A stretch of DNA of 64,000 nucleotides from Bacteroidales bacterium (lineage in GTDB: Bacteria > Bacteroidota > Bacteroidia > Bacteroidales > UBA4417), in contig JBBSDG010000001.1 in assembly GCA_038249635.1 (NCBI GenBank), forward strand, positions 2,037 through 66,036. Direction: 5' to 3'. Position numbers and translations under genes: made by a program. This document shows positions 39,328 through 62,580 of this stretch, in pieces. The notes beneath the pieces were generated by a model. It was not told the DNA's origin. It saw nothing but the letters and a program-made list of their open reading frames with translations, and made no database searches. Numbering within the stretch: the stretch's first letter is position 1; each line of letters begins with the position of its first letter.

Positions 39328-39344
39328 AATATCTTAGATTCCAC

Positions 39345-43438: not shown

Positions 43439-43457
43439 CTTTTGCTTTTAATAGATT

Positions 43458-45134: not shown

Positions 45135-45206
45135 TTATTAGTTTTAAGATTAAAGGAAAATGTAAGATTCACTCCTCAAAACTATGTGAAGGGTTCGTTT
45201 CAATCC

Positions 45207-45475: not shown

Positions 45476-46216
45476 TTAAAAAACTTCCAATGGGTTAATG
45501 TCCATGGGCTTTGAATACTTTTCAGGATTTCGAGTAATGATTCTGATGTTTCTAAATTGCCCTGTATATTTTTCTTTTTCAGGTTCATTACCTAAGCTGT
45601 GAATTTTAAAGGCAATATATCCTTTTTTGTATTTTTTATTTATCAGATTTGCTGCCGGGACTCCATTTACCCAGGTTTTTATATAAGACCCAATAGCCTC
45701 AATCCTTATCTTATTCCATTCGCCCCTGAAATATGCTTGTTGTGCCCGCTCATCATTGGCGAGAGTATAAAGCCAATGCCAGGTTCGTCCAAAATCATCA
45801 AAAATACCTCCAGTCCACTTACGTCTTGGTGAGGGATCAATTTTAAGCATATAGCCGTAAAGTCTTACGCTTGAAGTATCAATACTTCTGGGAACATCGA
45901 TACTTCTAAAGAGTACTCCGCTATTGAAAAAACTATCCGCTTTTACTTCCAGTTCAAGAATAAAGTCTGCGTATTTATTGGTTGTGCAAGCAAAGGTATG
46001 TTCAGGAGTGTTCTTCACCATATTACAGGTAATGGCACCTTCATTTACACGCACAACTCCCTCACTTCCAACCACCTTCCATCCATCTAAATTTTCCCCA
46101 TTAAACAGTGAGACCCAAGGTTCGTTAGTATTTTGAGCGCTTACGGGTAAGGCTAATAAAAAGCTGCAAAACACAATCAGTAAAGATTTGTAAGTTAAGT
46201 TTTGAAGTGTTCCCAT
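45476..46216 (-). CDS. DUF1080 (Pfam 3-keto-disaccharide hydrolase family) protein, exported
   Basis: 246 aa with a signal peptide. It has WVSLFNGENLDGWKVVG near the N-terminus and GQFRNIRI near the C-terminus, the hallmark DUF1080 ends. Confidence 0.85.
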   Translation of the reverse strand: MGTLQNLTYKSLLIVFCSFLLALPVSAQNTNEPWVSLFNGENLDGWKVVGSEGVVRVNEGAITCNMVKNTPEHTFACTTNKYADFILELEVKADSFFNSGVLFRSIDVPRSIDTSSVRLYGYMLKIDPSPRRKWTGGIFDDFGRTWHWLYTLANDERAQQAYFRGEWNKIRIEAIGSYIKTWVNGVPAANLINKKYKKGYIAFKIHSLGNEPEKEKYTGQFRNIRIITRNPEKYSKPMDINPLEVF

Positions 46217-46217
46217 C

Positions 46218-47847
46218 TTATTTTAGTTTCACTTGAATTAATTCAATTCCAATTCCTGTACCTAAATTTCGGGAATATTGTTTATCCTTATTATTATTCC
46301 AATGTTCGTGAACACCAAGACTTTTTAGTGGTGTGCCATCGTTTTCAGAATCGTATTTTGTTCCCGAAGGTGGGTTGTTAGCCAAAGCACATTCCTGAAA
46401 CTGATTATCCTGTTGACCGTTGAAACTTGGATTTTGTGCAACAAGATTTGGTTCACTGGCAATAAAATCGTACACTACTGATTCAATAGCCACAGGGTCT
46501 TGTGAAATCAACAAACTCGAAAACCAATCATTATTCAAAGTTGCCCAACGCATAACGGGTCCGGTTTGATTGATGGAGGTATAAAGTCCATCGGCAAGAT
46601 AGAGGAATGATTTGCTATTGATGACTTTGTGTCCCATAAGTACAGGTGCGGAATGAGGGTCTTTTAATTTATTTGGTGTCGGGTAACCCCACAAAGCAAA
46701 AACATGCAACGGATTTGGTTTAAAGGCCAATGAATCGAAGCACCACACAGAACCAAAATGGTTTTTAGCCATGGACGTAATTCCAAATACACGGTGCGGA
46801 CGAACCAGAGAATAATTGATGATGTAAGTGGCTTGCGTATATGATTTTGGGAGGCACATTTTGTACTTTTTCCCATCTGGCATATTAAACCAAAGCAGAA
46901 GTATCCGGTTCGGCTATGCGGCAATTGGGTAGATTCCCAACAAATTTACCTTCAAAAATTACCTTGGCGAATTCCGGAGATTTATTTCCATGAATTCGAT
47001 CGATGATTTTGTCCCCAATAAAACGCGATGGGTCTGTTATGATGATATCTTCACCTGAAACCCCAGCCACTTCAATGAGCTGTGTTATTAAAGAGTTTAG
47101 CATTTGAGGACTTGGATAACCTTGATTTTTCCATACGTTTTCAGCTAGGTGCAGCGCATTCATGTTGATCTTTATCACAATCTTTTCGCCTTTCTCATAG
47201 CTTTTTTTACCACGCCCGTTTTGTTTATTATTATATTCGAAAAGCTTTTGCCAAGCCTCCTTATCTGTTTTTATTCCAGTAAGGTTTTGCAATGTTGCCG
47301 ACATCATTTTATCGGTTTCCGATTGGTTGGTATTGTTATCATCCCACCACATTCCGTTTCTTTCGTCCCAGCTGGTAGCCATAAGATCATGTGTCCAGAC
47401 AACACGACCAGGGAATATTCCTTTTGCTTCGCCCATTGGAGCATTTGAACCTTCAGGATTAATAAGGGTTGGCACAAAAACCACCTTCGATGAATCTGCA
47501 ACTACCCATGTCAGAGAAATAAGCATCGCAACAGAGCCGATGAATACCAACGCAACAGGTTTATTGATCCGTTTTCGAATTTCCTGATAAACAGAAAGAG
47601 ATGTAACGATGCTTATTACATAAAGTAAAAAACCACCGCCAATACCTACTGCTGCCTGCTGACAAGGATATGCAACACGACTTGGTTTGGGAATTACCCT
47701 CACCAAAAACCAGATAATAGCAAAAATACCTACAATAGGGAAAGCCAGTTTCGTATAGATATTATCGAATCGAAGTTTAACAATCCGACCTGATTTCGGA
47801 CATCGTTTTACTAAAAATCCAGGAATAAATCTGTTTATTGATTTCAT
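46218..47847 (-). pseudogene. DUF362 family protein split into two frames (frameshift or assembly indel)
   Basis: ORF 46885..47847 has an N-terminal membrane anchor, KPSRVAYPCQQAA, and EKIVIKINMN (like the DUF362 KPN motif). It stops at TAA 46885. ORF 46218..46883 starts 1 nt later in a different frame and carries LVRPHRVFGITSMAKNHFGSV (like the DUF362 K.H...G.T...KN.fG motif). Together they total about 541 aa, a normal DUF362 length. Confidence 0.6.
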
Positions 47848-47922
47848 TGGTTTAAAATTTAGTAGCCCCCTCCAAACCTCCCAGGGGAGGCTTAAAAAAG
47901 CTGGTACTTGTGGCTTTTATTT

Positions 47923-50562
47923 TCACTTTCGCTTTAACGTCACCACTACATATGGTGTTTCTTGCTCCAAATCTGGATAAATACAGCCATGACCTTCGTT
48001 ATCCATCACTTCGATAAAATACATAAAATCGAATTTGGGGTCAATCTGACTGGCAGGTATTGTTGCCTGAAAAACATCACTTTCTGCGTCAAGCTTCATC
48101 GGTAATGCTTCATAATCCAGGTGTTGATTTACTGCACGATACCGAAGCCTTGCCCATTTAATCCCGGAGGACGCTTTTATGCTTGCTTTTATTTGTATGT
48201 CTTGATTCACGGGGATATTGGTAATTGCCTGATGCTGTATTTGAAAAAGTGCATGGGGATCAGCAACAGCTGTGGCTTTGAAAACGGGAGAAATTCTTGG
48301 CTTATCGGTTTTCCCGATAGTGGTTCTTTCATTCTGAAGCTGTTTCAAACCATCTTCCAGATCACCAAGTTCATCAATCCAATGGCCGGAAAGACGATGC
48401 TTGATACCCATAAATAGAATCTCACGGGTGCCAAACATCAAATCAGATGCATATACATCGCCTGCAGCTTCAACTATTTTTAGCCAGGCATCAATGGCCT
48501 TTTTTTCATAGCTTATCGCATCATCCAATGCATAAGGGTCGTTGGTGCGTTTATAAATACAATAACTTACTGCAGCCGGAATACGTTTGGAATGATACAA
48601 GGCTAAATTCGAAAGAATTTTCAGATCGGTAATGGTCGAAAAGAACTCCTTATTGCCTGATGGCATTAAATTTTCAGCCATTGTAATTAGTTGATTCAAT
48701 TCACTATTGCGTTGTGCAAACCATACACTTGTTGCAGAAGGCAACTGTTTGGTTGTTTCACCACCTTCAGTTAATAGTTGTGCTTCGGTATCAAAACTTG
48801 CAAATTGCTGAATATCGCTACCCTCAGCCATTGCATATTGAGGTAGGTCGCCATAATTTTGTTTTTCAGGCCAGCCACAGGTTGTAGGAAATTTTGCGTA
48901 AGGCGAACATGCAGCCACGATTGTTGGCAATACCCAACTAGCTTTGTGCAAGGCTTCTTCTACAATTGCTCCGGCTTCCTTTCCAAATCGCATTTCAAAC
49001 TCGCGATCCCAAACTTCAGATGCTGTATTAGGATTATAACCCAAACGACCAAAAACCTGAAAGAAATGCCAATATCGCTCGAATTCGTAATTGTAATAAA
49101 CGTATGGTGGATTTAACAAATCGAATGGCTGAATGTTATGGGGTTGGGCTTCCATTTTTGTAGCAAGCGGTTCGTTCACTTCAAAACCTTCCCCATCATA
49201 AAGATGCGTGCTACCCACAAATCGTTGAACATACTGCGGGTCGCCCCAAAGTAGAATACGTTGTGTGCCACCAGTCCACAAACGCCAATGAAGTTTATAA
49301 TTTTTTGGATAGCGGAGCATGTCAGCATACCCTTGTCTGCGACCGAATTGGTTTTCGCGATTAATGTGTGTGGGGTGAAAAGGAAGCCCCATTTGTTCCA
49401 TCCAATATTTAGTGGTAATCCGAAAATTCAGATTAAGATCAGATGCTATTTTAATAATCGATTCAGGCAAATCTTTGGCACGTAAATCAATTTGAAACAT
49501 AGGAGAAGTTGTTTTGAGCATGTGAAACACCTCTGTCCAGAAAAGTTCCATTTCAGCTCCTTTTTTAAGACCCGATTCGCTATGCATGCGAAATTGAATT
49601 CCATCAAGTCCGGGTACTTTCTGTATTAACTTGGCCAGGGCTGCTTTGGTATAATTGGATAAATTGCTTGCATCCAAGCCTTCAACCAAATGATTTTTAT
49701 CCATTTTTGCCAATTCTTCTTCCGTTAAGCCGCCTGTTTGAATTCCTCCGCGATAAATATGGTCCCAAATTCCTACCTTAAAATCAATACCTCTCTCATG
49801 GGCCATTTCAATCATACGGTTAAGTGCCACCAGATTTTTCTCTTGTTCTTCAACTGTCAGATTTCCCATTTTTATAGTTGGAAATCCGTCAACATTAAAA
49901 AAGTAAGGATAACATGGGGCAAGAAAACCTCCATTTTCATAACCAAAAATTAAAACGATACAATTGAAACGATTTTCGGCCAACATATCCATGTAGTTTG
50001 CCCAATAATCTTCGTTGTAAAACCTGCTTTCCCAATATGCACGATTCATGGTGTACATGGATATGGCACGGGTAACAACTTCGGGCGATTCATTAACAGG
50101 AATTACTTCGCTAAACGGATCATTTGCATTTGAACTCCAGCTAATGCGTTCAGCTACATCAAGCAGCGCATACATTAATCCGCGATCGTCAGCGCCATTA
50201 ATTACCCAAACCGGTTTTTGCTGAAATTCTGTTTTCCAGATAGATAATGACTCGGGCTGGCTTAATGTTGGCTGGTTTGTATCATGAGCCAATTTTGCAG
50301 CAGTACCATTACCTGAAGTTAATCCAACAATTAAAATAGCTGTACCTTTTGCTTGTTTCAACGAACGAATTAACTCATAGGAAATGTTTTGCTTTTCCAG
50401 ATTCTTGGTCAATTTAGTCATACCATGTTGAACCGAACTTCCAATTGATTGATCAGTTATGATGGAAACATACGGATTCTGTTTGCCTGCAAACGCCGTC
50501 GAATAAATGGCAAATAATAAGCAAATAGATGATAATGTTCTATGAACAATTGATTGATGCAT
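47923..50562 (-). CDS. Exported 879-aa hydrolase-like protein, family unassigned
   Basis: It has a signal peptide. The N-domain ends in VWVINGADDRGLMYALLDVAERI, a GH20b/alpha-glucuronidase-N-like hallmark. A putative TIM barrel follows (RAISMYTMNRAYWESRFYNEDYWANYMDMLAENRFNCIVLIFGYENGG..., ERGIDFKVGIWDHIY). The C-terminus looks like a beta-sandwich (WARLRYRAVNQHLDYEALPM...FDFMYFIEVMDNEGHG). It is distantly similar in layout to 24667..26964. Confidence 0.4.
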   Translation of the reverse strand: MHQSIVHRTLSSICLLFAIYSTAFAGKQNPYVSIITDQSIGSSVQHGMTKLTKNLEKQNISYELIRSLKQAKGTAILIVGLTSGNGTAAKLAHDTNQPTLSQPESLSIWKTEFQQKPVWVINGADDRGLMYALLDVAERISWSSNANDPFSEVIPVNESPEVVTRAISMYTMNRAYWESRFYNEDYWANYMDMLAENRFNCIVLIFGYENGGFLAPCYPYFFNVDGFPTIKMGNLTVEEQEKNLVALNRMIEMAHERGIDFKVGIWDHIYRGGIQTGGLTEEELAKMDKNHLVEGLDASNLSNYTKAALAKLIQKVPGLDGIQFRMHSESGLKKGAEMELFWTEVFHMLKTTSPMFQIDLRAKDLPESIIKIASDLNLNFRITTKYWMEQMGLPFHPTHINRENQFGRRQGYADMLRYPKNYKLHWRLWTGGTQRILLWGDPQYVQRFVGSTHLYDGEGFEVNEPLATKMEAQPHNIQPFDLLNPPYVYYNYEFERYWHFFQVFGRLGYNPNTASEVWDREFEMRFGKEAGAIVEEALHKASWVLPTIVAACSPYAKFPTTCGWPEKQNYGDLPQYAMAEGSDIQQFASFDTEAQLLTEGGETTKQLPSATSVWFAQRNSELNQLITMAENLMPSGNKEFFSTITDLKILSNLALYHSKRIPAAVSYCIYKRTNDPYALDDAISYEKKAIDAWLKIVEAAGDVYASDLMFGTREILFMGIKHRLSGHWIDELGDLEDGLKQLQNERTTIGKTDKPRISPVFKATAVADPHALFQIQHQAITNIPVNQDIQIKASIKASSGIKWARLRYRAVNQHLDYEALPMKLDAESDVFQATIPASQIDPKFDFMYFIEVMDNEGHGCIYPDLEQETPYVVVTLKRK

Positions 50563-50596
50563 TATATAAGTTATATGTTTGCCTTTCGATCACACT

Positions 50597-51457
50597 CTAT
50601 AGGCTTAGTAAATATTTTACACTTGGTTCAAAAGTTACAGGAGCCATTTCGACATAGAAATTTTTCACTCCACCAATTTTAGCAGCTTCAAAAAAGTCAG
50701 GCCAATCAACTATTCCTTGTCCAATAGAAACCTGCGCATCTTTTGCCGTATTCCAATCGGACAAATGCGCAGAAATAAACCGACCGGGATGTTTCCGGAA
50801 ATAATCAGCAGCTTTGTAGCCAATATTTGCTACTGCTACTTGAAATTGCATTTTCACTAATTCGGGATCTAATGCATCTAATAAGGCATCATAAATGATT
50901 TCATCGCCTCTTTTTTCAAATTCCATGTGGTGATTGTGGAAACCCATCTGTAAGCCAGCTGCTTTCACCTTTTTGGCAATAATGTTCAGTCCTGCAGCCG
51001 ATTTGCGGTAATTTTCAATTGTTTGTTCTTCCTTTGGCAACCAAAAGCTTGAAAGCATCATCTGTTTCATCCCCATTTGATGCGCCCAATCAATTCGATC
51101 ATTAAGGTTCTCTTGCAGTTCGCCCAGGTTAAAATGAGAGCTTGTACATTTAAGACCGTTATCTTCAATAATCTTGCGCAGTTCGGTACCACTTAGTTTA
51201 TTCAGAGGTGCAAACCCTGTCTTGATATAACCCAAAGGAGAGCACATCTCTATTTCCTTGTACCCAAAGGCAGCCATTTTTTTACACGTACCAGCAAGAT
51301 CTTTGTTCAGATCTTCCTTGATGGTCCATGTCTGAAATCCAAATGATTTTACAGTATTTGCTTCAGTGCCTAAGGCAAAGCTATTTTTGCTTAACAGTGC
51401 TATTGCCCCAAGGGCTATGCTACTTGTTTTTAAAAATTTACGTCTAGACGATTTCAT
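50597..51457 (-). CDS. Xylose-isomerase-like TIM-barrel (sugar phosphate isomerase/epimerase family) protein with Tat signal
   Basis: 286 aa. The twin-arginine leader is MKSSRRKFLKTSSIALGAIALLS. The body (GYKEIEM..., GLQMGFHNHHMEFE, YVEMAP) fits the AP-endonuclease-2 / xylose-isomerase-like barrel. Confidence 0.8.
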   Translation of the reverse strand: MKSSRRKFLKTSSIALGAIALLSKNSFALGTEANTVKSFGFQTWTIKEDLNKDLAGTCKKMAAFGYKEIEMCSPLGYIKTGFAPLNKLSGTELRKIIEDNGLKCTSSHFNLGELQENLNDRIDWAHQMGMKQMMLSSFWLPKEEQTIENYRKSAAGLNIIAKKVKAAGLQMGFHNHHMEFEKRGDEIIYDALLDALDPELVKMQFQVAVANIGYKAADYFRKHPGRFISAHLSDWNTAKDAQVSIGQGIVDWPDFFEAAKIGGVKNFYVEMAPVTFEPSVKYLLSL

Positions 51458-51486
51458 GAGTTTAACTTTTAATTTTTAGTTTTTTA

Positions 51487-53067
51487 TTAAATATCTTCAA
51501 GCTTCCAACCGTTTCGATATTCCCGGTTTAAGTAATTATTTGCATTTAAATCATTTGTAATCTTCATATTATCCGCATCGTATTTCAATGTTTTGCGGGC
51601 ACGAAGCGACACTGCATAAAGGTTAATGGCTTCGGTAATTGGCCATGCCTGACGGAAACTGCCAGCAACTTGTTTATTGTTCTTAACACCTTCAATAAAG
51701 CGTTCAACCCCACCTTGCTTTCCAGCTCCTGCTGCCGCAGAAACGGCTTCTGAAAGTTTAATATCTCCCGAAAGGATAAATGGATCGCTGACTCTAAACC
51801 CGGATGTCATTATGATTCCTTTGTCGCCGACAAACATCATTCCTTCATCTGGAAATTCTTTATCCTTCTTGTAGAATTCCTCTGGCACAGGGGGTTTCAT
51901 TCCACCATCGTACCAGATCAGATCTACCGCATTTCTGTTTCCCTTTGCAGGATATTTAAATCGTACTGAAGAGGCATACGGAAATGAGAAATCGTTTTCA
52001 ATGGTATAAGCAGTAACATTATTTTTTATATCGCAAACATGACTCAGATTTGGTTCGATGATCATTGGTTTTTCGAGCTGTAGCGCATCAAAAACGGTCC
52101 AAAGACTATAATGTCCCATATCTGCCATTGAACCGCCACCAAAGTCATACCATCCACGGAAAACCATGTTGGTGTAATGGGGATGGTAAGCACGTTCAGC
52201 TTCAGGTCCAAGCCATAAGTCCCAATCAAATCCTTCAGGAAGTTTTGGCTGATCGGTTGGAATTTTTGTATAGTGCGGCCATACCGGTCTGCGCGACCAA
52301 TTGTGAACTTCTTTCAGTTGACCGATCGCGCCACCGTTGATCCATAGCATAATCTGGTCCATTGATCCATTCGAATCCCAGGGAATCAGATGAGTTACCA
52401 CATCGGTTTTTAATGCCATATCAATAACTTTTCTCCCCTCCATCAGACGATTGGAAAGTGGTTTGTGCATGGTAATAGGAATACCTCTTTTCAATGCCGA
52501 CATGGTAATTACACCATGCAGATGATCGGGAGTCATGACTTTAATTGCATCAATTCCTTTCTCTTTTTCAAAGAGTTCACGAAAATCAGCATAAGCCTTG
52601 CATCCTTTGTAATTGTTTATTTGTTTTGAATGTGCGTAATAACCATCAACAATCGCTTTTCCATTGTCTCGACCACCGGGAATGGTATTGCTACCTCCCG
52701 TTACCCAATTTGGATTACCAATGGTTTTACGCATCAGATCAAGCAAGCCGTTTGGACTCCAATCAAAATACCCGGTAGCTTTCTTTTGGGGATCGCATAC
52801 GGCAATTATCTGAACATCCGGAAGCCTCAACAAATCAGGGAGTTCACGCAAACCCTGGGTTCCCAGACCAATGTAGGCCACATTGATTTTGTCACTTGGA
52901 GCAATGTACTTACTTCCACCCAAAACAAAGGAAGGAAGTATCGTTAACCCAACTGCTGAAGTAGTAATTCCGCCGATAAACTTCCGGCGATCCATTGATT
53001 TTTCAGCACTTACTGATTCTGATTTTGCAATGGGTCCCTTTTTTTGAATTTCAAATTTATCTTCCAT
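51487..53067 (-). CDS. Gfo/Idh/MocA family NAD(P)-dependent oxidoreductase with Tat signal
   Basis: 526 aa. The likely true start is MDRRKFIGGITTSAVGLTILPSFVLG at 52995 (twin-arginine). The Rossmann start is INVAYIGLGTQGLRE. The remainder has the typical Gfo/Idh/MocA glycoside-dehydrogenase-like layout. Confidence 0.85.
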   Translation of the reverse strand: MEDKFEIQKKGPIAKSESVSAEKSMDRRKFIGGITTSAVGLTILPSFVLGGSKYIAPSDKINVAYIGLGTQGLRELPDLLRLPDVQIIAVCDPQKKATGYFDWSPNGLLDLMRKTIGNPNWVTGGSNTIPGGRDNGKAIVDGYYAHSKQINNYKGCKAYADFRELFEKEKGIDAIKVMTPDHLHGVITMSALKRGIPITMHKPLSNRLMEGRKVIDMALKTDVVTHLIPWDSNGSMDQIMLWINGGAIGQLKEVHNWSRRPVWPHYTKIPTDQPKLPEGFDWDLWLGPEAERAYHPHYTNMVFRGWYDFGGGSMADMGHYSLWTVFDALQLEKPMIIEPNLSHVCDIKNNVTAYTIENDFSFPYASSVRFKYPAKGNRNAVDLIWYDGGMKPPVPEEFYKKDKEFPDEGMMFVGDKGIIMTSGFRVSDPFILSGDIKLSEAVSAAAGAGKQGGVERFIEGVKNNKQVAGSFRQAWPITEAINLYAVSLRARKTLKYDADNMKITNDLNANNYLNREYRNGWKLEDI

Positions 53068-53080
53068 AATTTAAATTCGC

Positions 53081-53887: not shown

Positions 53888-53959
53888 TGTGTTTTATTTT
53901 AAATGAAGTTAAGGTTGACCTTAAAAATTGATATAAGTCTAATTCAAAAGTTATTGTAT

Positions 53960-55486
53960 TTAGTATTGATTCTTATGTTTGAAATCTGAATTTCTATAAT
54001 TACTATTTTTCTTGAGCGGAATCTTCAAACCATCGGTCTTTTCCATCCAATCGTTTAAATCCAGTAAATGTTTTTTAATTAACGGCTGAATTTCAGGTTT
54101 CTCAATCAAGTTGTACATTTCGTTCGGATCGTTTTGGATATCGTAGAATTCATTCCGATCCCAGATTCCCTGATACCGAATGTATTTATATTGGTCGGTA
54201 CGAACTCCAAACATGGTCGGAGTCATGGGATATTGGTATTCCCAAAAATATTCATAAAAAATACGGTCGCGCCAGTTCGTCTCATCACCTTTTAGCAATT
54301 GAATAACGGAATAACCTGGCATGTACTCCGGTTTTTTCAGACCGGCCATTTCCAGACAAGTTGGAGCAATATCGGTATTTTGCACCATTTTTTCAATCAC
54401 TTTACCACCTCTAAATAATTCGGGACACCGCACCAGAAAAGGAACTTTCACCGACTCTTCGTAGAAATGCCGTTTATCGATCAGGCCATGTTCGCCCCAG
54501 CTAAAACCATTGTCGCCCATATAGATCACTAGTGTCGATTCGTCCAACCCTTCCTGTTTTAGGCAATCCATCACCGAACCTACACTTTCGTCTACGCCCA
54601 ACAAAGTTTCGCAATATTCCTGCACCATGGTGTTCATATCATTATTTCCACTGTAAATGTAATCAACACCATGGCAACTGATGCGCTGCGCCGCTACCCA
54701 TTCAGGCCATTTCATCTCACGGTATGCCCCTGTCTTGGTTTGGTCGTAAGTAACAGGAAGCAAGTATTTTTTGTCCTTGTACCTACCTTTATGGCGCTTT
54801 GCGGGAAGAAATCTTGAATGAACCGCTTTGTGCGACAGATATACAAAAAATGGCTTGGTCTTGTCCCGTTCCTTCAACCATTTTAGGGTATGTTCTGTAA
54901 GTAAGTCAGTAATATAAGTTGAATCTTTATAAACTACCTGTTTGCCGTCGATATTTAATACCGGATTGTAATAGACTCCCTGTCCCTTGAAGCTTTCCCA
55001 ATGATTGAACCCTGGACGGGGTGCATCCGATTCATCACCCATGTGCCATTTCCCGAAGAAAGCTGTTTGGTAACCACTTGCCTGAAGATATTGCGGGAAA
55101 TAAGTAAGATTACTAGGATCGGGAGCCTGATTGTCAACAATGGTATGCGTGTGTGAATACATTCCGGTAAGAATAGAAGCCCTACTGGGAGAACAAAGCG
55201 AGGTAGTTACAAATGCATTTTTGAACCAGGCACCTTCGGCAGCCAGTTTATCCATATTGGGTGTTTGGAGCCACGGCACTTTGCCGGTAAAACCAATAAA
55301 ATCGTAACGGTGATCATCGGTCAGGATGAAAATAATATTTCGTGGTTTTACATTCTTATCTATTTGAAGCGGTTTGAAATTCGAATTAGTTTTTTGAGAA
55401 AAACCACTTAGCGGAGCATATAACACGAGTGCTCCCAATAGTAATTTGGGCGTAATCATTATTTGCTTATTATTCGTTTTTAACAA
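53960..55486 (-). CDS. S1 family sulfatase (third member of the paralog trio)
   Basis: 508 aa with a signal peptide. Motifs: FILTDDHRYD and LCSPSRASILTG. It has long runs identical to 29868..31370 and to the pseudogene 5449..6858. Confidence 0.93.
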   Translation of the reverse strand: MLKTNNKQIMITPKLLLGALVLYAPLSGFSQKTNSNFKPLQIDKNVKPRNIIFILTDDHRYDFIGFTGKVPWLQTPNMDKLAAEGAWFKNAFVTTSLCSPSRASILTGMYSHTHTIVDNQAPDPSNLTYFPQYLQASGYQTAFFGKWHMGDESDAPRPGFNHWESFKGQGVYYNPVLNIDGKQVVYKDSTYITDLLTEHTLKWLKERDKTKPFFVYLSHKAVHSRFLPAKRHKGRYKDKKYLLPVTYDQTKTGAYREMKWPEWVAAQRISCHGVDYIYSGNNDMNTMVQEYCETLLGVDESVGSVMDCLKQEGLDESTLVIYMGDNGFSWGEHGLIDKRHFYEESVKVPFLVRCPELFRGGKVIEKMVQNTDIAPTCLEMAGLKKPEYMPGYSVIQLLKGDETNWRDRIFYEYFWEYQYPMTPTMFGVRTDQYKYIRYQGIWDRNEFYDIQNDPNEMYNLIEKPEIQPLIKKHLLDLNDWMEKTDGLKIPLKKNSNYRNSDFKHKNQY

Positions 55487-55566
55487 CTTGGCATTAAAAT
55501 CACAAAAGACTTATAGGAAACCCCGGGGCAGAGCCCCAAGGTTTTCTTTAAGTTAAGATGAGAAAA

Positions 55567-57219
55567 TCAATACCCATCGTTCTGTTGTAGTCCATAAGTA
55601 ACCACATCATTTTGAGGTAATGGCCATAGGCCTTTTTTAGCTTGATAAGCAGCAGGATAGGCCAATTTGCTAATCCTCCCGGTACGAATAAGATCGTAAT
55701 ATCTAATCCCTTCCAGTGCAAATTCTACCCTGCGTTCATGCCAGATATCTTCCAACAATGCCTGCCCGGTTGATGCAACATCAGGCACTTTGGCATTTGG
55801 AAAAGGTTTATAATTAATCGGAACTAAATTGGCATCGTAATCACCTAAAAATGCTCCGAGAGGATAAGTTGATAAACGCGCTCTTTTTCTTACAAGATTA
55901 ACCAGATTTCTAACTTCATCCTCTTTTCCTCCAAGACGATAAGCAGCTTCTGCATTCATAAGCAGTACGTCAGAGTATCTGATGACCCGGATGTTAACAG
56001 GGATTTGTCGTCTTCCTCCAGGTATGTATTTCAATGTAGGTACGCCTTTTCTCAAAGTTTTAAATATTTTGTAGTCGTATTCAGGAATTTTGGTCATCCA
56101 TAAATTTTCATTTACATTCGATTTCATCATAATATTTTGCACAATATTATATCCCCAACCTACAGGCCATGCCTCACTCATCATTGTACATTCCCTTCTG
56201 GGATCAACATCTCCGTTTTGCGAAAATTCGGCAAACAGATTATCTTTAGGCTGATTAAATCCCCAACCACCAAATCCTCTGACTCCCATGCGAAATGGCA
56301 CTTCATTTCCTGGCAAATCCCCAAATGCCGTCACAGACAAGTCGTTTACGTATTGCTGATCAAATACGGTTTCAGATTTATTTTCTCCATCCTGTTCAAA
56401 TACTGATGCATAATTTGGGAGTAAAGTGTATTTGCCTGAGTTGATGACCTCTTTGGTTTGATTGTAAACCTCCTGCCAAAGTGAAGTAACATTTATACCT
56501 GAATATTCAGGAGCCCGTTGCTTCATAATGTCGTTATAAAAATAACCTGTCTCATTCATGCAAACTCTTGCTTTTAGTGATCTGGCCGCACCCTTGGTTG
56601 CACGTCCAATATCAATATTTCCTTTTTCAGGTAACACCGAAATTGCATCATCCAAATCTTTTTTTACAAAATCAAAAATTTCTTTTTCTGTTGTTGATCT
56701 TTTTACTGAAACAAAATCAGCAGGCACAAGAACCTTATCTAATAAGGGCACCCTTCCATAAATAAGTACAAGTTTTGAATAGGCGAATGCTCTTAAAAAC
56801 TTAGCTTCTGCAATGTAAATCTTCTTGTTGTCAGAAAGATTTTCCTGCTTTTGAATTTGATTAATAACTTCATTGGTCCTTGTTATCAATTGATAGAGAT
56901 TCGCCCAATGAGGTTGTATGAGTGCATTCGAAGCTGCGCCCGTAAAGCTGGCCATCTCTTGAAACATAATTCCATCACTTAAACTGCTTCCGCCTTTTAC
57001 AGCATCATCAGTGGGTAAATCACCATTTGTCAGATACAATTGATCAAGGTTCATAGAGCGGTAACACGAAACGAGCGCTTTGAAACAATTCGCATCAATT
57101 TCATAATAGGTGCCTGAGTTTTCACTGTTTATTGGTTCTAAATTCAGCACTTTTTCGCTACAGGCATTTAGCAATAATATCCCTGATAGCGCTATTACTT
57201 TAAATATTGTTGTTTTCAT
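55567..57219 (-). CDS. SusD/RagB family nutrient-binding outer-membrane lipoprotein
   Basis: 550 aa. The lipobox is ILLLNAC. The C-terminal signature is ERRVEFALEGIRYYDLIRTG. It lies directly downstream of a SusC homolog. Confidence 0.92.
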   Translation of the reverse strand: MKTTIFKVIALSGILLLNACSEKVLNLEPINSENSGTYYEIDANCFKALVSCYRSMNLDQLYLTNGDLPTDDAVKGGSSLSDGIMFQEMASFTGAASNALIQPHWANLYQLITRTNEVINQIQKQENLSDNKKIYIAEAKFLRAFAYSKLVLIYGRVPLLDKVLVPADFVSVKRSTTEKEIFDFVKKDLDDAISVLPEKGNIDIGRATKGAARSLKARVCMNETGYFYNDIMKQRAPEYSGINVTSLWQEVYNQTKEVINSGKYTLLPNYASVFEQDGENKSETVFDQQYVNDLSVTAFGDLPGNEVPFRMGVRGFGGWGFNQPKDNLFAEFSQNGDVDPRRECTMMSEAWPVGWGYNIVQNIMMKSNVNENLWMTKIPEYDYKIFKTLRKGVPTLKYIPGGRRQIPVNIRVIRYSDVLLMNAEAAYRLGGKEDEVRNLVNLVRKRARLSTYPLGAFLGDYDANLVPINYKPFPNAKVPDVASTGQALLEDIWHERRVEFALEGIRYYDLIRTGRISKLAYPAAYQAKKGLWPLPQNDVVTYGLQQNDGY

Positions 57220-57265
57220 CTTGATAATTTAATAATAATTTCAATGAATAATTTATAACTATAAA

Positions 57266-60200
57266 TTAGAAAGTAATATTCAACCCGGCAATGTATGATT
57301 TTGGTATCGGGTAGTTTGCCAAATCGATTCCTGCGGCAAGTGATGTGTTTGAAGCATTACCAGGGGTATAATCACTAATTTCAGGATCGAATCCAGTATA
57401 TTTGGTAACAGTAAATAAGTTCTGTCCGGTTACATAAACCCTTAGATTGGTAAGTTTTAGTTTCGATATTAAACTTTTAGGAAGTGTATAACCCAATTGA
57501 ACCGTCTTAATTTTAAGAAAACTTCCATCTTCAATATTTTGATTGCTCATTTTGAACCAGTTTCTGTTCGGATTATTGATGGTCATTTTGGGCTCCGTTC
57601 CCGTTGGATTATTCTCAGCAGAATAACGATCAAGTCTCTTCACAGTAAGGTTGCTATAATTTTCACCTGTACTAATTCTTGGAGTTAGCATATTCGCGAT
57701 TTCATTTCCCTGGGTGCCAATTACATTAACAGACAGATCCCAGTTTCTATAGGATATATTGCCTGACATTCCATAGGTAAAATCAGGTATGGCACTTCCT
57801 AGATCCAAATAATCTTTTGAGTCAAGAACATGGTCTCCATTTTTATCGGCATATCGAGCATCGCCAATAGTTATTTTTGAAGCATTTGGAAATGCGTCCA
57901 AGTCAATTTCTGCCTGCGTTTGATAAATGCCCGTATAATCAAACCCAATAAAATGCGCTATTTCTTTGCCCACTTCTGTTCTGGTAATATACTGTGGGTC
58001 AACCTGATTATTGATAGCCCCACCCTGAATGTAGCCTTTTGAACCAAGGTCTGTGACTTTATTATTTATAAATGAGATATTTCCATTCAGGCTAAACGAA
58101 AGATCTCCGATCTGTTCTGAATAACTTGCCGATATCTCAAATCCGGTATTCTTCATCGCACCAACATTCACGAATGGTTCCGAGTTGCTCGTATAGCTTG
58201 GAACAGGGACTTGAACAATCATATCTTTCGTATTTTTGATGTAATAGTCAGCCGAAACAGTCAATTTATTTTTGAAAATTCCCAGATCGACACCTATGTT
58301 TGAACTTTCAACTGATTCCCATTTCAAATCAGGATTAACCGTGCTGGTTGGAATACCACCCTGATTAACAGCATTTCCATTGATAGAATAGTACATATTT
58401 GAAATATTCACAGTTGATAAATAGGAATAAGCATCAGCGCTCGATTCATTTCCAACCTTTCCCCAGTTTGCCCTAATTTTCAAAGAATTAATAAAGGGGA
58501 TATTCTTCATAAAGTTCTCCTCCGAAGTCCTCCAAGCCAAACCAATTGAGGGGAAAGTGCCCCATTTATTTTGATCTGAGAATTTATAAGACCCGTCACG
58601 GCGAACAATTGAATTCAGTATATACTTACTTTTGTAAGAATAGGATAGACGTCCAAAAACAGATTCCATGCCAGATTCCCCAACATTTACGGTAGGATTT
58701 CCCCAAGTACTTGCCCTATTGATGTAATGTAGGTTAGGATCTACTGAAACTCCACTCGTTGCAACAATATTGAATCCATCATTCTTTCGATAAGTCGCCT
58801 CATGCCCTATAGTAAACTTTACATCATGGTCAGAAGCAAATATTTTTTCATAAGTCAACAAATTATTCCAATACCAGCCTGAGGTTTCATACCTACCTTC
58901 AGATAACGAACTGGTTGAATTATTTTTTCTAGCATTGATGTAAAAGCTTGGCGAAAAATTTTTTGAATGACGGAATGAATTCGAGTAATTATAAATAGTT
59001 TTAAATGTCAAACCATCTATAATATCAACTTGAAGCCAACCTTTGGTTCCATACTCTAAATTTTTTGTTTTAAAATCCTGTGATCTGGTAATGGCCTGTG
59101 CGACATTATCTTGTCCGTCATTAAACCACATATTTCCCCAACTACCATCAGCGTTTTTTACCGGCATAAGTGGGATGGATTGTAGCGCATTACCAAGAGG
59201 ATCGTCGAATGCGTTGATGGCATCAGAGCCGATGCTGTTGATAGTATTAAATGTTATTTCTGCCCCCATTGCAACTTTCTTGCTAAGCTTGATTTCAAGC
59301 TTTGATAAAATATTATACCGATTGAAACCAGTAAATTTTAAGGTCCCTTTATTATCATTATATGATCCTGAAATATAATATTTCAACCCTTTTCCTGATT
59401 TTCCTTCCAGACCTCCGGTTGCTGAAATTTGATGATTTTGTGTCATACCCGTTTGGAAGACTTCATCCTGCCAATTGGTGCCAACGGTTTTGTTGGCAAT
59501 CGCATCATTGATCAACTTTAGTTTTTCTCCAATAAACGGAGTATTATCATTCGTTGCTGCTTCCTGATACATTTGAGCCCATTCATAACCGTTTAGAATA
59601 TCAAGTTGTTTGACATGATCGAAACTTAAATAGGAATTAACGGCAAACACAGTTTTGTCCTTCATTGTTCCTGTTTTAGTGGTCACCAATACAACACCAT
59701 TCGCACCGCGAGATCCATAGATTGCAGTTGAAGAAGCATCTTTTAATATTTCAAGACTTTGAACATCATTTTGGTCGATATTGTCCATATTTCCACTTGG
59801 CACGCCATCTATAACATACAAAGGGTCAGAGTTATTTATAGTCCCAACACCTCTGATACGTATTTTAACACCATCGCCTGGCCTTCCAGATCCTTTAACG
59901 ATTGAAACTCCAGCAACTTTTCCTTGTAAAGCTTCAACAACTCTTGAAGTAGCTACACCATTCAAGCTCGAACCTCTTACTGAACTTACAGCACCGGTAA
60001 GGTCACTTTTCTTTGAAGTACCATAACCAATTGCCACGACTTCTTCAAGACCTATTGATTCTTCAGCAAGTGTAATATTTAACGTTGTTTTTGATCCGAC
60101 GGCAGCTTCGAGTGTCTTCATACCTACAAATGAAAACTGCAATGTGGCATTATCTGGAATATTGGTAATTAAATAGCTTCCATTGTTATCTGTAATTACC

Positions 60201-60694
60201 CCTTTTGTAGATCCTTTTACAACAACAGAAACACCAGGGAGTGAACCACCAGTTGAGTCGGTGACTTTACCTGAGACTGATTTTTGTTGTTGAGTGCCGG
60301 AAGTTGTTCCTTCAGGCAAATTGGCTTCGGGTGTTGTAAGTACAATTTGCCTGTCTTTAACAGCGTATTGTACTGTGGTACCATAGAAAACCTTGTCCAA
60401 TATTTTATCAACAGTGCTTTGCTGCACGTCGATATCGACTTTTCTATTAACATCAATTAATTTTTCGGAATACAAAAAGAAAAATTCGCTCTGATTTTCA
60501 ATTGCGTCCAATGCATCTCTGACAGTTGTATTTTTCAAATCCAGAGATAGTTTGGTTTGTGCATAGGACTCAGAAGCAATAGCTCCAATAAAAGAAAGTA
60601 CTAATATAAATACTGTTAGTTTCATTTTTAATAAGATTTGTGCCGCACCCGGGAAATTAAACCCAAGTGCATGAACTAGTAATTTTTTTTTCAT
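57266..60694 (-). CDS. SusC-type TonB-dependent transducer with N-terminal STN signalling domain
   Basis: 1142 aa in the ORF track. A cleaner start is MKLTVFILVLSFIGAIASESYAQ at 60625. The STN-like segment is LSLDLKNTTVRDALDAIENQSEFFFLYSEKLIDVNRKVDIDVQQSTVDKILDKVFYGTTVQYAV. A carboxypeptidase-regulatory-like domain, a plug and a barrel ending ...GLNITF follow. Confidence 0.92.
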   Translation of the reverse strand: MKKKLLVHALGFNFPGAAQILLKMKLTVFILVLSFIGAIASESYAQTKLSLDLKNTTVRDALDAIENQSEFFFLYSEKLIDVNRKVDIDVQQSTVDKILDKVFYGTTVQYAVKDRQIVLTTPEANLPEGTTSGTQQQKSVSGKVTDSTGGSLPGVSVVVKGSTKGVITDNNGSYLITNIPDNATLQFSFVGMKTLEAAVGSKTTLNITLAEESIGLEEVVAIGYGTSKKSDLTGAVSSVRGSSLNGVATSRVVEALQGKVAGVSIVKGSGRPGDGVKIRIRGVGTINNSDPLYVIDGVPSGNMDNIDQNDVQSLEILKDASSTAIYGSRGANGVVLVTTKTGTMKDKTVFAVNSYLSFDHVKQLDILNGYEWAQMYQEAATNDNTPFIGEKLKLINDAIANKTVGTNWQDEVFQTGMTQNHQISATGGLEGKSGKGLKYYISGSYNDNKGTLKFTGFNRYNILSKLEIKLSKKVAMGAEITFNTINSIGSDAINAFDDPLGNALQSIPLMPVKNADGSWGNMWFNDGQDNVAQAITRSQDFKTKNLEYGTKGWLQVDIIDGLTFKTIYNYSNSFRHSKNFSPSFYINARKNNSTSSLSEGRYETSGWYWNNLLTYEKIFASDHDVKFTIGHEATYRKNDGFNIVATSGVSVDPNLHYINRASTWGNPTVNVGESGMESVFGRLSYSYKSKYILNSIVRRDGSYKFSDQNKWGTFPSIGLAWRTSEENFMKNIPFINSLKIRANWGKVGNESSADAYSYLSTVNISNMYYSINGNAVNQGGIPTSTVNPDLKWESVESSNIGVDLGIFKNKLTVSADYYIKNTKDMIVQVPVPSYTSNSEPFVNVGAMKNTGFEISASYSEQIGDLSFSLNGNISFINNKVTDLGSKGYIQGGAINNQVDPQYITRTEVGKEIAHFIGFDYTGIYQTQAEIDLDAFPNASKITIGDARYADKNGDHVLDSKDYLDLGSAIPDFTYGMSGNISYRNWDLSVNVIGTQGNEIANMLTPRISTGENYSNLTVKRLDRYSAENNPTGTEPKMTINNPNRNWFKMSNQNIEDGSFLKIKTVQLGYTLPKSLISKLKLTNLRVYVTGQNLFTVTKYTGFDPEISDYTPGNASNTSLAAGIDLANYPIPKSYIAGLNITF

Positions 60695-60756
60695 ACATTT
60701 GTTGTGAATATGGTTTTAAAATGGTCAAATTTCGATTTGACGTTTTTGAATCTCAG

Positions 60757-60795
60757 GCAGAAAAATGTGCAACCATTTTTCTGCTTTTTGCTTTT
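60757..60795 (+). terminator. Strong hairpin (GCAGAAAAATG-TGCAAC-CATTTTTCTGC) followed by TTTTTGCTTTT; terminator-like only in the plus orientation
   Basis: An 11-bp perfect stem is read directly at 60757..60784, followed by a T-run to 60795. It lies between the anti-sigma stop (60849) and the SusC start, both of which are minus-strand genes. Confidence 0.4.
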
Positions 60796-60848
60796 ATACA
60801 CATACTGTTTTATTACATAGGCATAATTTTTTTTGAATTAGTATTGGG

Positions 60849-61907
60849 TTAATTATTCTTTTTCATCCCGATTAATACTTTTTGTTTTGAAAAACTGCCA
60901 TCTGGTAATTTTACACGTAAAGTTAGTTGGTAGTTTACCGGCGTGGCTAAAGTCATTAAATCAAGCACCTGTGGTAATGTTTCGTCCATAAAAGTCGCTG
61001 TAAATGTAAACGCCTTAACTTTTTCATTGCTAATTTCAACTTCAACATTGTACCACCGGGCCAGTTTTTTGGCAATATCTTCAACCCTTTCGTTCTTAAA
61101 TACCAACAGACCATCTTTCCATGCTGTATTTTTTTCGGCATATTCTGATTCAAGGGTATAAACATTTTTTTGCGAATCAAACTTTAAACATTCGCCAGGC
61201 AATAATGCTTTTATTTCGTTTTTAGTTTCTCTTTCGTACAGGATAACCTTACCCTCAACAAGGGTTGTCGAAATATTATTATCACCCGGATAGGCACTGA
61301 CATTAAATGCGGTACCGGTTGCCTTCACATCTAAAAGGTTTGTTCCGACAATAAATGGCACCTTCTTATTGTGGGCCACCTCGAAATAAGCTTCGCCGGT
61401 TAAGAATACTTTGCGGTTTTCACCTTCAAACCGAAGGGGATATTTCAATTTACTGCCATGATTTAACCAAACCTTTGTTCCATCGCCCAATTCGATGTGC
61501 ATCCTGGAACCGGCTGGTGCTTCGACTTCCAAGTCATTTAGATTGACTGCATAACGATCTTTATTCGAAAGATTAGTGTAAAACAACAAGGATAAAACTG
61601 GTATTAAAAGGATAGCAGCAGCACGTGTTAATAATGACAATATCCTGTTTTTAATTGGTGCTTTTTGAATTACAAATTGTGTAGAATTCCGACTGATATT
61701 TATTTGATGATGAATTTTATCCAGTATACGGTTGTATTTAATTCTCTCTGCCGGTCCCGCTTCCGGTTCAAATTCATTCCATATCTCATTTACTATTCCT
61801 TGCTCGGAAGTTGATGTGGCTCCTTCTTTGATCCAAACAAGAATTTGTTCAAATTCTGATTCTGTACAATTCCCCTGTAAATATCTTATGAATAGTTCTT
61901 TTGTCAT
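60849..61907 (-). CDS. FecR family anti-sigma factor
   Basis: 352 aa. It has an N-terminal cytoplasmic anti-sigma segment, a TM (ILSLLTRAAAILLIPVLSLLFY), and a FecR domain (GEAYFEVAHNKKVPFIVGTNLLDVKATGTAFNVSAY). Confidence 0.9.
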   Translation of the reverse strand: MTKELFIRYLQGNCTESEFEQILVWIKEGATSTSEQGIVNEIWNEFEPEAGPAERIKYNRILDKIHHQINISRNSTQFVIQKAPIKNRILSLLTRAAAILLIPVLSLLFYTNLSNKDRYAVNLNDLEVEAPAGSRMHIELGDGTKVWLNHGSKLKYPLRFEGENRKVFLTGEAYFEVAHNKKVPFIVGTNLLDVKATGTAFNVSAYPGDNNISTTLVEGKVILYERETKNEIKALLPGECLKFDSQKNVYTLESEYAEKNTAWKDGLLVFKNERVEDIAKKLARWYNVEVEISNEKVKAFTFTATFMDETLPQVLDLMTLATPVNYQLTLRVKLPDGSFSKQKVLIGMKKNN

Positions 61908-61989
61908 TTTTATGGTTGTGTATTAGTGAAACGATTAACTGTACCAACACCACCATCTAAAATGTGAAAAAAAAATACTTTTTTTTGAA

Positions 61990-62580
61990 TCAAAGAAACA
62001 AACAGACAAACAACATATTTATTAACAATGAATTATCTAAATTTTGGTGCAAATATTTTAATGCTTTTCCCATGTGATTTTCAACCGTATTTTTAGATAT
62101 TCCCAATTTTTTCGCAATTTCAGGATAAGTTAACCCTTCCTCCCTATGCAGCAGGTAAACCTGTTTCTGCCTCTCCGGAAGATTCGATATAAGATTATTT
62201 ACCTGGTCGTTCAGTTCATTGAATTCAACATCACTAGTGGTGGTTGTGCTTATTTGAAAAATACTGGAATATTTCAGATGCTCTAGATATTTGCTGTTGT
62301 TTATCCTCTTACGGATAAGATCAATAGAATTATTGTAGGCAATTGTGAAAATATAAGAATTCAATAGTTTGTAGTCGACAAGTTTCTCTCTTGACTCCCA
62401 AATCTTAACAAAGACTTCCTGTACAATGTCCTCAGCTTCTGCCTCGTCCTTTAATATTCTAAAAATAAACGAGAACAACTTATGACTGTAATGATCGTAA
62501 ATCTGATCAAATGCCATCATGTCCCCATTTTTCAACTGGGTTAGTTGTTCTTCTGTGATATTGTTCCTATCGTTTTTCAA
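61990..62580 (-). CDS. ECF (sigma-70 family, group IV) RNA polymerase sigma factor
   Basis: 196 aa. Region 2 is EAEDIVQEVFVKIWESRE. Region 4 is LPERQKQVYLLHREEGLTYPEIAKKLGISKNTVENHMGKALKYL. Confidence 0.92.
   Translation of the reverse strand: MKNDRNNITEEQLTQLKNGDMMAFDQIYDHYSHKLFSFIFRILKDEAEAEDIVQEVFVKIWESREKLVDYKLLNSYIFTIAYNNSIDLIRKRINNSKYLEHLKYSSIFQISTTTTSDVEFNELNDQVNNLISNLPERQKQVYLLHREEGLTYPEIAKKLGISKNTVENHMGKALKYLHQNLDNSLLINMLFVCLFL

Follow-up and report, generated by a model that had tools for sequence, protein, structure and literature searches.

How does a bacterium cleave an imported glycan when the genes behind its importer include no recognisable glycosidase? The question is raised by a minus-strand gene cluster at 45476-62580 of a 64,000-nucleotide (nt) stretch of a Bacteroidales bacterium (GenBank assembly GCA_038249635.1, contig JBBSDG010000001.1, positions 2,037 to 66,036 of the forward strand), referred to below as the window. 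A first-pass annotation had described the cluster as a SusC/D locus gated by an extracytoplasmic function (ECF) sigma factor, with a sulfatase and without any glycoside hydrolase (GH) or polysaccharide lyase (PL) in its cargo, and had proposed that a sulfated oligosaccharide is cleaved there by oxidation and elimination. We annotated the minus-strand open reading frames (ORFs) of this interval by Pfam and added NCBIfam, PDB sequence and Foldseek searches for selected proteins. Results point, with a probability of roughly 0.55, to a hybrid polysaccharide utilization locus (PUL) for a sulfated glycan, in which hydrolytic and oxidative enzymes would both belong to the cargo and which would not be free of GHs.

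The ORF listing gives twelve minus-strand genes within the interval, with intergenic spacing of 1-154 nt. Together with Pfam it bears out the gene order, coordinates, spacing and domain calls given at first pass, including the ECF sigma/FecR/STN-SusC-gated SusC/D arrangement with its sulfatase. The Pfam scan of all ORFs in 45476-62580 returned zero matches to GH or PL families, and the ORFs of 879, 320 and 221 amino acids (aa) had either no Pfam match or a sub-threshold one. To this extent the reported absence of GHs and PLs stood; it did not hold for the cargo in a wider sense, considering that the 879-aa protein is GH138-like and that GH43 and GH39 genes lie just downstream.

A GH138-like protein and a redox trio in the cargo

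The secreted multidomain protein of 879 aa (47923..50562, minus strand) had been left unassigned, which we can now revise. Its N-terminal 200 residues match the NCBIfam family NF049878 (GH138 alpha-galacturonidase) with E=5e-16, and its score of 57.9 bits against an equivalog cutoff of 1300 keeps it outside GH138 at the level of sequence membership. With phmmer, the protein matched the GH138 chains 6hze and 6hzf of the PDB, and a profile made from 53 sequences of its family matched the same chains in three collinear stretches spanning both proteins. The AlphaFold2 (AF2) model, with a predicted local distance difference test (pLDDT) of 80 and a predicted template-modelling score (pTM) of 0.83, is composed of an N-terminal alpha/beta domain, a (beta/alpha)8 barrel, a helical domain and a C-terminal beta-sandwich, as in the GH138 fold. 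In a Foldseek search of the PDB, this model retrieved the GH138 structures 6hzf, 6hze and 6hzg first (E 3.5e-26 to 6e-25, template-modelling (TM) scores 0.58-0.71), followed by GH20, GH84 and GH67, all of the same plan of N-domain plus barrel. The acidic residues E208, D266, E328, E388 and E463, located at barrel strand ends, are invariant in the family. In the profile alignment, E328 (motif RMHxESG) falls within one position of Glu294 of GH138, and the alignments stop short of Glu361; these two glutamates are reportedly the catalytic ones of the GH138 enzyme BPa0997 (Labourel et al. 2019), the variant name 'E361S' appearing in the PDB.

The family of the 879-aa protein has more than 2160 homologues, spread over Bacteroidota, Verrucomicrobiota and Planctomycetota, and the best match on a genome contig reaches 73% identity. 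One protein of 1353 aa from a JGI metagenome (P0097) carries an S1 sulfatase in residues 1 to about 490, fused to a GH138-like part (504-1353) that is 59% identical to the 879-aa protein, and this fusion ties the GH138-like family to sulfated substrates. The window holds a paralogue of 765 aa at 24667-26964, which matches NF049878 with E=1.4e-26. In 80 genomes, members of the family usually lie beside SusC/D pairs, ECF/FecR genes or their own paralogues, and redox genes are absent from this set. The possibility that the 879-aa protein is a fourth component of an oxidative pathway was dropped, as synteny at these 80 genomic homologues revealed no co-travel with redox genes. We conclude that it is probably a glycosidase of an unclassified family, neither a member of GH138 nor part of the redox set.

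The oxidative part of the cargo would consist of three proteins encoded on the minus strand. The first is a jelly-roll protein with a Sec signal, here DUF1080a (53081..53887), of the family DUF1080 (PF06439, Pfam 1.3e-30), which at present bears the name '3keto-disac_hyd'. Its gene lies 13 nt upstream of that for a Gfo/Idh/MocA oxidoreductase (51487..53067; Pfam GFO_IDH_MocA), here GFO, and the third protein is a xylose-isomerase-like TIM barrel (50597..51457; Pfam AP_endonuc_2), here TIM. Export of the latter two by twin-arginine translocation (Tat), as claimed at first pass, is in line with visible RR motifs: MDRRKFIGG in GFO, for which M25 at 52995 is the likely true start, and SRRKFLKT in TIM, which is also matched by TIGR01409. 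The best PDB matches are 8tdf and 8tdh for GFO (2e-49) and 8tcd, 8tcs and 8tct for TIM (7e-20). We take these entries to be the structures of Nasseri et al. 2024. Among NCBIfam families, the best for GFO is NF058561, the BT_2158_fam glycoside 3-dehydrogenase, with 280 bits against a cutoff of 750.

Proteins of these classes act together in a published pathway. The BT2156-BT2160 cluster was linked to disaccharide use via 3-keto intermediates (Liu et al. 2021, PMC8121099). In the corresponding AL/BT enzymes, the Tat-exported Gfo/Idh/MocA protein AL3/BT3 oxidises C3 with tightly bound nicotinamide adenine dinucleotide (NAD), the TIM barrel AL1/BT1 is a 3-keto-beta-glycoside 1,2-lyase, and the DUF1080 protein AL2/BT2 is a 3-keto-alpha-glycoside lyase and also a glucal hydratase; the chemistry tolerates C6 modifications and proceeds in vitro without AL4/BT4 (Nasseri et al. 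2024, bioRxiv 10.1101/2024.03.25.586180). By their matches, GFO is a candidate glycoside 3-dehydrogenase and TIM a candidate 3-keto-glycoside 1,2-lyase, while DUF1080a, by its family and its adjacency to GFO-TIM, is a candidate 3-keto-glycoside lyase/hydratase. GFO and TIM also show weak NCBIfam matches to IolG, IolE and levoglucosan dehydrogenase (E 1e-5 to 1e-7). An assignment of GFO to GH109 was rejected, as the only chains found at E<=1e-5 (8tdf, 8tdh, 7d5m, 7d5n and 3v5n) are labelled dehydrogenase or oxidoreductase; none of them is known to be a GH109 entry.

We looked at the synteny of GFO in 80 metagenomic loci (L082-L161), many of them from soil and peat, in which the orthologues of the pair are 51-87% identical. 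GFO and TIM were adjacent in 56-58 of these 80 loci. The conserved unit is the Tat-GFO/Tat-TIM pair, which is widespread and usually stands alone outside PULs, and its placement behind a DUF1080 gene in a PUL is specific to this genome. The whole 12-gene locus was dropped as a conserved unit, no conserved PUL context having been found at the 80 metagenomic GFO homologues.

The SusC/D core, its relatives and the neighbouring genes

The core of the locus is encoded on the minus strand by an ECF-type sigma-70 factor of 196 aa with a TTG start (61990..62580; Pfam Sigma70_r2, Sigma70_r4_2 and Sigma70_ECF), a FecR-type anti-sigma factor of 352 aa (60849..61907; FecR and FecR_C), a SusC-like TonB-dependent transporter of 1142 aa (57266..60694; STN at residues 73-121, CarboxypepD_reg (CarbopepD_reg_2) and Plug) and a SusD-like lipoprotein of 550 aa (55567..57219; SusD_RagB and SusD-like_3). 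The susC and susD genes are adjacent with 46 nt between them, which identifies a PUL, and the combination of ECF sigma factor, FecR anti-sigma factor and N-terminal STN on SusC identifies it as one with trans-envelope signalling.

Orthologous transporters allowed us to compare cargos. SusC orthologues of 52-59% identity stand in a matching sigma/FecR/SusC/SusD arrangement (L164, L165 and L166), and SusD orthologues (64-67% identity) are followed by S1 sulfatases and, on every contig of sufficient length, preceded by ECF sigma, FecR and STN-SusC. In Zobellia sp. OII3 (L164, MWRZ01000005.1 23471-45126), SusD is followed by two sulfatases, a GMC dehydrogenase dependent on flavin adenine dinucleotide (FAD) with a Gluconate_2-dh3 small subunit, and a third sulfatase; this orthologous PUL contains no GH. 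The nearest structures to the Zobellia large subunit are the large subunits of fructose and glucose dehydrogenases, and the small subunit has a Tat-like N-terminus (MQRKDFLKG). Gene order in L172 is the same as in Zobellia as far as the contig extends, and in L166, L170 and L171 the cargo includes a GHL10-like TIM-barrel protein of 566 aa. PULs built on orthologous SusC/D keep the sigma/anti-sigma/SusCD/sulfatase core and exchange the remaining cargo. The oxidation idea draws its strongest independent support from these orthologous transporters, behind which two non-homologous Tat-dependent periplasmic sugar dehydrogenases are encoded.

In L166, several transposase genes (8407-9195, 13358-17268) interrupt the orthologous SusC/D-sulfatase PUL, which fits a turnover of cargo in this lineage. 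More distant SusD relatives, about 42% identical, belong to AraC-regulated beta-mannan PULs with GH26, GH130, GH5 mannosidase, 2-epimerase and a major facilitator superfamily (MFS) transporter (L168 from Robertkochia flava, L169 from a TARA scaffold), a weak hint, by analogy, that the ligand of the SusC/D pair in the window may be mannan-like.

The S1 formylglycine sulfatase of the locus (53960..55486, minus strand; Pfam Sulfatase, PF00884, 2.4e-53, and SGSH_C) has an intact formylglycine motif, CSPSRASILTG at residue 98, as expected for an S1 sulfatase. Its nearest solved relatives are the PDB entries 7p24, 5g2v and 7lha (E 1e-87 to 1e-70), which are S1_11-type exo 6-O-sulfatases with N-acetylglucosamine 6-sulfate (GlcNAc-6S) and L-galactose 6-sulfate (L-Gal-6S) as substrates, and this suggests that the enzyme belongs to an S1_11-like subfamily. 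It is 85% identical to a sulfatase at 29868-31370 and also to a split copy at 5449-6830, each sub-cluster of the window having one. The three copies at about 85% identity across the sub-clusters indicate a recent duplication and probably a common sulfated substrate.

Within the 154-nt spacer between the FecR and susC genes, a terminator-like scan and the sequence revealed a palindromic hairpin with a 13-bp stem (60755..60786, no strand assigned). It is possible that this hairpin acts as a terminator or attenuator between basal sigma/anti-sigma transcription and the expected ECF-dependent inducible susC promoter. When 44900-63400 was scanned for terminators and sigma-70 promoters, no usable minus-strand site emerged, with counts at or below shuffle expectation. 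A comparison of the regions upstream of susC, upstream of the sigma gene and in the 341-nt gap described below for a shared promoter motif returned A/T-rich strings only.

The DUF362 gene (46218..47847, minus strand) is split by a frameshift into ORFs of 320 and 221 aa, as had been annotated, with the break at about 46883-46887. Its homologues are single proteins of about 543 aa, and the two halves miss only 'WFN' at their junction, where the DNA reads TTGGTTTAATATG and L-V-W-F-N-M is expected; this fits a short deletion in a GGTTT repeat. A Logan assembly of SRR19962013 (L001), made independently, shows the same split. In a full-length homologue, modelled with a pLDDT of 88, three transmembrane helices at the N-terminus precede a soluble domain, for which LarA-type nickel-pincer/malate racemases were the only structural neighbours of significance (E 1e-5 to 4e-4, TM 0.3-0.4); we regard the remote LarA-like fold as a lead and not as an assignment. 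The last gene of the locus encodes a second DUF1080/PF06439 protein, DUF1080b (45476..46216, minus strand; Pfam 1e-33). On two unrelated contigs (L162 10001-11641 and L163 10001-11629), DUF362 is followed by a DUF1080b orthologue (57-58% identity), with proteins like those of 765 and 879 aa nearby. The GH138-like protein, DUF362 and DUF1080b form a recurrent module, separate from DUF1080a-GFO-TIM.

Three genes are split in the 64 kb, namely the S1 sulfatase at 5449-6830, a GH39 gene at 28098-29817 and DUF362 at 46218-47847, in each case as overlapping or abutting ORFs. The break in the sulfatase lies near a T6 run. These genes could be true pseudogenes or carry assembly indels.

The first-pass annotation had closed the locus at 45476. 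There is indeed an intergenic gap of 341 nt at this point (45135..45475, minus strand), the sole gap above 154 nt between 24220 and 62580; the co-directional array continues beyond it, so that the boundary is a choice. No minus-strand terminator was predicted in the gap. The sequence TAGTTTTG at 45177-45184 corresponds to the Bacteroidetes -7-like element TAnnTTTG and lies 42 nt upstream of a sulfatase ATG at 45134; it is the single TAnnTTTG match across the tested intergenic regions of the array, the chance expectation being, by a rough estimate, about 0.2 per 341 nt.

The downstream block (24667..45134, minus strand), with genes 7-142 nt apart or overlapping, contains no SusC/D pair and no regulator. 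In the order of transcription, it encodes a sulfatase, an unknown protein of 291 aa, a GH43, an MFS sugar transporter, a FucI-like isomerase, a PfkB kinase, two further GH43, an 804-aa protein with a type IX secretion system (T9SS) tail, the sulfatase at 29868-31370, the split GH39, a ThuA-like protein and the 765-aa GH138-like protein. The 85%-identical sulfatases, this GH138-like paralogue, the ThuA-like protein and the lack of a predicted terminator link the block to the locus. Probably the locus functions as part of a larger co-directional array of 38 kb, which also has GH43, GH39, two more sulfatases and pentose catabolism.

The FucI-like isomerase (37915-39327, Fucose_iso_C), placed between the PfkB kinase and the MFS sugar transporter, has as its sole NCBIfam match the sulfoquinovose isomerase SftI (E=1.6e-32, 113 bits against a cutoff of 700). 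The ThuA-like secreted protein (PF06283, 27107-28063) adjoins the 765-aa GH138-like protein at 24667-26964. ThuA is part of the ThuAB system of rhizobia, which forms 3-keto-disaccharides (Liu et al. 2021, PMC8121099), and by analogy its relative may be a further hint of oxidative sugar chemistry in the block. The rest of the window contains a xylan-type PUL (1253-21968) with a plus-strand hybrid two-component regulator (HTCS), two tandem SusC/D pairs, a DUF5627/BT_3987-like surface protein, GH10, GH3 and the split sulfatase at 5449-6830.

Weighing the readings of the locus

In the hybrid reading that we prefer, the architecture of the core suggests that a sugar fragment bound to STN-SusC/SusD would signal to the FecR anti-sigma factor, release the ECF sigma factor and activate transcription from susC downstream. 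SusC/D would bind and import a sulfated oligosaccharide, from which, by homology, the S1_11-like sulfatase would remove a sulfate, probably 6-O, at the non-reducing end in the periplasm, unmasking a sugar. The exposed sugar could then be cleaved by two routes, both proposed on the basis of homology: by the GH138-like TIM-barrel enzyme, a probable hydrolase, or by the three-enzyme oxidative set homologous to BT2156-58/AL1-3. In the second route, GFO with its tightly bound NAD would oxidise C3, TIM and/or DUF1080a would eliminate the aglycone across C1-C2, DUF1080 would hydrate the glucal product, and GFO would be re-oxidised by reduction of the keto-sugar product. The downstream GH43, GH39 and transporter/isomerase/kinase set would handle pentose side chains and products. 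The oxidation-elimination cleavage proposed at first pass is retained here in part: the enzyme classes match an established pathway and the Zobellia PUL has a dehydrogenase, but the GH138-like protein and the downstream GHs are present as well.

A number of observations weigh against this reading. GFO has HKP where the characterised AL3 has EKP, and D-M-G-H-Y where AL3 has D-M-A-C-H, which puts a Tyr at the position of His252, as in glucose-fructose oxidoreductase. TIM has Gln at the metal-ligand Asp211 of AL1, Val at Trp214 and 'QFQ' in place of 'ELD'; it keeps the H-N-H, H-L-x-D and V-E-M motifs, the second His and the catalytic Glu being retained. GFO also has an insert of about 45 residues relative to AL3. 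HKP and ADMGHY are invariant in 81/81 GFO relatives, as are QFQ and the Gln and Val at the Asp211 and Trp214 positions in 49 TIM relatives and, judged by sequence, the GFO-TIM pair is not orthologous to the characterised AL3/AL1 and forms a distinct subfamily. Of the 80 metagenomic loci, 3 have a DUF1080 gene near GFO-TIM, 1 has a sulfatase there and none has SusC/D, and the pair that is 87% identical (L082) lies among DNA methylase, sigma-54 regulator, GcpE and MetK genes. Because the pair is rarely near DUF1080, SusC/D or sulfatase genes and shows two active-site differences, the trio is put forward only as a candidate for the main depolymerisation step.

To the same side belong the DUF1080 proteins. 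Both pass the PF06439 gathering score; DUF1080a had no match among PDB sequences at 1e-3 and is remote from BT2157-type structures, 8v31, the sole other chain labelled 'Glycosyl hydrolase' (identity not established), reached E=0.4 against DUF1080, and DUF1080b matched uncharacterised structural-genomics entries only (4jqt at 1e-49) and is not close to BT2157-type structures either. A scan of the window ORFs of at least 120 aa found no cytoplasmic BT2159/AL4-like GFO and no SusR-like/DUF6377 regulator. The DUF362 gene is frameshifted. Finally, the -7 element in the 341-nt gap is plausibly a housekeeping one, in which case the downstream GH genes may be transcribed separately.

Many of these points would suit a conventional hydrolytic PUL, an explanation that we regard as possible, if somewhat unlikely. 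The GH138-like, GH43 and GH39 enzymes would then cut the glycosidic bonds, and GFO-TIM, with or without DUF1080, would oxidise or dehydrate a released periplasmic monosaccharide, anhydro-sugar or cyclitol, in the manner of IolG/IolE or LgdA/LgdB. It would account for a GFO-TIM module that normally stands alone outside PULs, for its weak matches to IolG, IolE and levoglucosan dehydrogenase, for active-site residues altered relative to AL1/AL3, for GHs and pentose catabolism genes on the same strand and for a GH138-like fold inside the locus. What it does not explain well is that the best matches of GFO and TIM are, by a wide margin, glycoside-cleaving AL/BT enzymes (2e-49 against 1e-7 for GFO; 7e-20 for TIM), that 13 nt separate GFO from an upstream DUF1080 gene, and that the orthologous PUL of Zobellia has a sugar dehydrogenase and no GH. 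If the trio were only accessory, the locus would be an ordinary PUL with unannotated carbohydrate-active enzymes (CAZymes).

The opposite explanation, a dedicated PUL that has no GH and cleaves the glycosidic bonds of the imported sulfated oligosaccharide solely by oxidation-elimination, is improbable considering that the 879-aa protein resembles GH138 and conserves acidic residues at the barrel strand ends, that its family co-travels in the 80 genomes with SusC/D pairs and paralogues and not with redox genes, and that three orthologous SusC/D loci have a GHL10-like TIM-barrel protein. It takes its appeal from the absence of Pfam GH and PL matches within 45476-62580, from the homology of the trio to the 3-keto pathway, from the 341-nt gap with its -7-like element, which could end the operon at 45476, and from the orthologous Zobellia and L172 PULs with sulfatases and a dehydrogenase and no GH. 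Highly improbable is a third alternative, in which a mosaic or decaying region arose by recent duplication or rearrangement, with no single pathway and some pseudogenes. The three split ORFs of the 64 kb, the three 85%-identical sulfatases, neighbourhoods of the 879-aa protein and of GFO that are both unconserved in relatives and the transposases interrupting an orthologous PUL could be read in this sense. The spacing is nevertheless tight (1-154 nt), the remaining ORFs are unbroken and have proper signal peptides, each of the sub-modules GFO-TIM, GH138-like/DUF362/DUF1080b and sigma/FecR/SusCD/sulfatase is conserved elsewhere, and the frameshifts, one of them at a T6 run, could be assembly errors.

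A more far-reaching idea, which we put forward as speculative and unlikely, is that of a marine or environmental lineage of ECF-sigma-gated PULs with a core of transporter and exo-sulfatases, in which periplasmic oxidation replaces hydrolysis after desulfation and two unrelated dehydrogenase systems were recruited independently, the NAD-bound Tat-GFO with TIM and DUF1080 in the window and the GMC FAD dehydrogenase with its small Tat subunit in Zobellia sp. OII3 and L172. If this were true, oxidative deglycosylation would be a primary degradation route for certain sulfated algal glycans, and the GFO-TIM subfamily (HKP/ADMGHY/QFQ) would represent a new specificity class of 3-keto chemistry.

Comparison with known systems

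Many marine PULs for sulfated algal glycans have no assignable glycosidase. The breakdown of glycans by 3-keto chemistry has so far been shown in gut bacteria, for neutral glucosides, mannosides and glucuronides and with small clusters that lack SusC/D; the same enzyme classes in a signal-gated SusC/D-sulfatase locus make the hybrid PUL a testable candidate for the oxidative processing of sulfated, probably algal, glycans. The unrelated sugar dehydrogenase in the matching position of the Zobellia PUL strengthens this case. Our analysis also draws attention to three large uncharacterised families: the GH138-like proteins, the membrane-anchored DUF362 proteins of 543 aa paired with DUF1080, and the Tat-GFO/Tat-TIM pair.

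The suggestion that such a system had not been described is not supported, as the chemistry and the enzyme trio are already published (PMC8121099; bioRxiv 10.1101/2024.03.25.586180). Each of the elements is known: ECF-sigma-gated PULs, PULs with S1 sulfatases, and the 3-keto pathway. What is new is that they occur together in one locus, that GFO-TIM forms a distinct subfamily and that cargo, including an unrelated dehydrogenase, is swapped behind orthologous SusC/D. A literature search of incomplete coverage returned only Liu et al. 2021 and no PUL joining DUF1080/3-keto chemistry, SusC and sulfatases.

With the GH138 enzyme BT0997/BPa0997 (6hze, 6hzf and 6hzg), the 879-aa protein shares overall length and domain order, and one of its conserved Glu lies at or beside the Glu294 position. 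The two are only 12-14% identical, and the 879-aa protein is found in sulfated-glycan loci, whereas GH138 is found in rhamnogalacturonan-II loci.

The order of genes in the core resembles the host O-glycan PULs of B. thetaiotaomicron, which Martens et al. reportedly described in 2008-2009 as regulated by ECF sigma and anti-sigma factors with an STN-domain SusC: in both, sigma factor, FecR-like anti-sigma factor, STN-SusC and SusD are co-directional and followed by periplasmic enzymes including sulfatases. The cargo in the window differs in being mainly redox and unclassified enzymes and not catalogued GH families, and its organism looks environmental or marine and not gut-derived.

The inositol dehydrogenase IolG with the inosose dehydratase IolE, and LgdA with LgdB of the levoglucosan pathway, likewise combine a Gfo/Idh/MocA dehydrogenase with a xylose-isomerase-like TIM barrel that eliminates beside the new carbonyl. 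In contrast to GFO-TIM, they work in the cytoplasm, their substrates are free cyclitols or anhydro-sugars, and the similarity is marginal (E 1e-5 to 1e-7).

The 3-keto pathway (BT2156-BT2160 and Alistipes AL1-AL5) has three periplasmic enzyme classes that stand side by side in the window too. The window locus has an ECF sigma/anti-sigma pair and SusC/D, whereas the BT/AL clusters have a SusR-like/DUF6377 regulator and no SusC/D; it adds a sulfatase and a GH138-like protein, and its DUF1080 proteins are remote from BT2157.

Periplasmic FAD dehydrogenases of glycosides and sugars with a small Tat 'hitch-hiker' subunit (LacABC, glucoside 3-dehydrogenase, FAD-GDH and fructose dehydrogenase) act together with DUF1080 in Caulobacter (PMC9007349). 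They are not homologous to the NAD-dependent GFO, and the window contains none of them; as proposed for the hybrid PUL, they open glycoside catabolism by periplasmic oxidation, and in the orthologous PULs of Zobellia sp. OII3 and L172 an enzyme of this class takes the place in the cargo that the redox genes have in the window.

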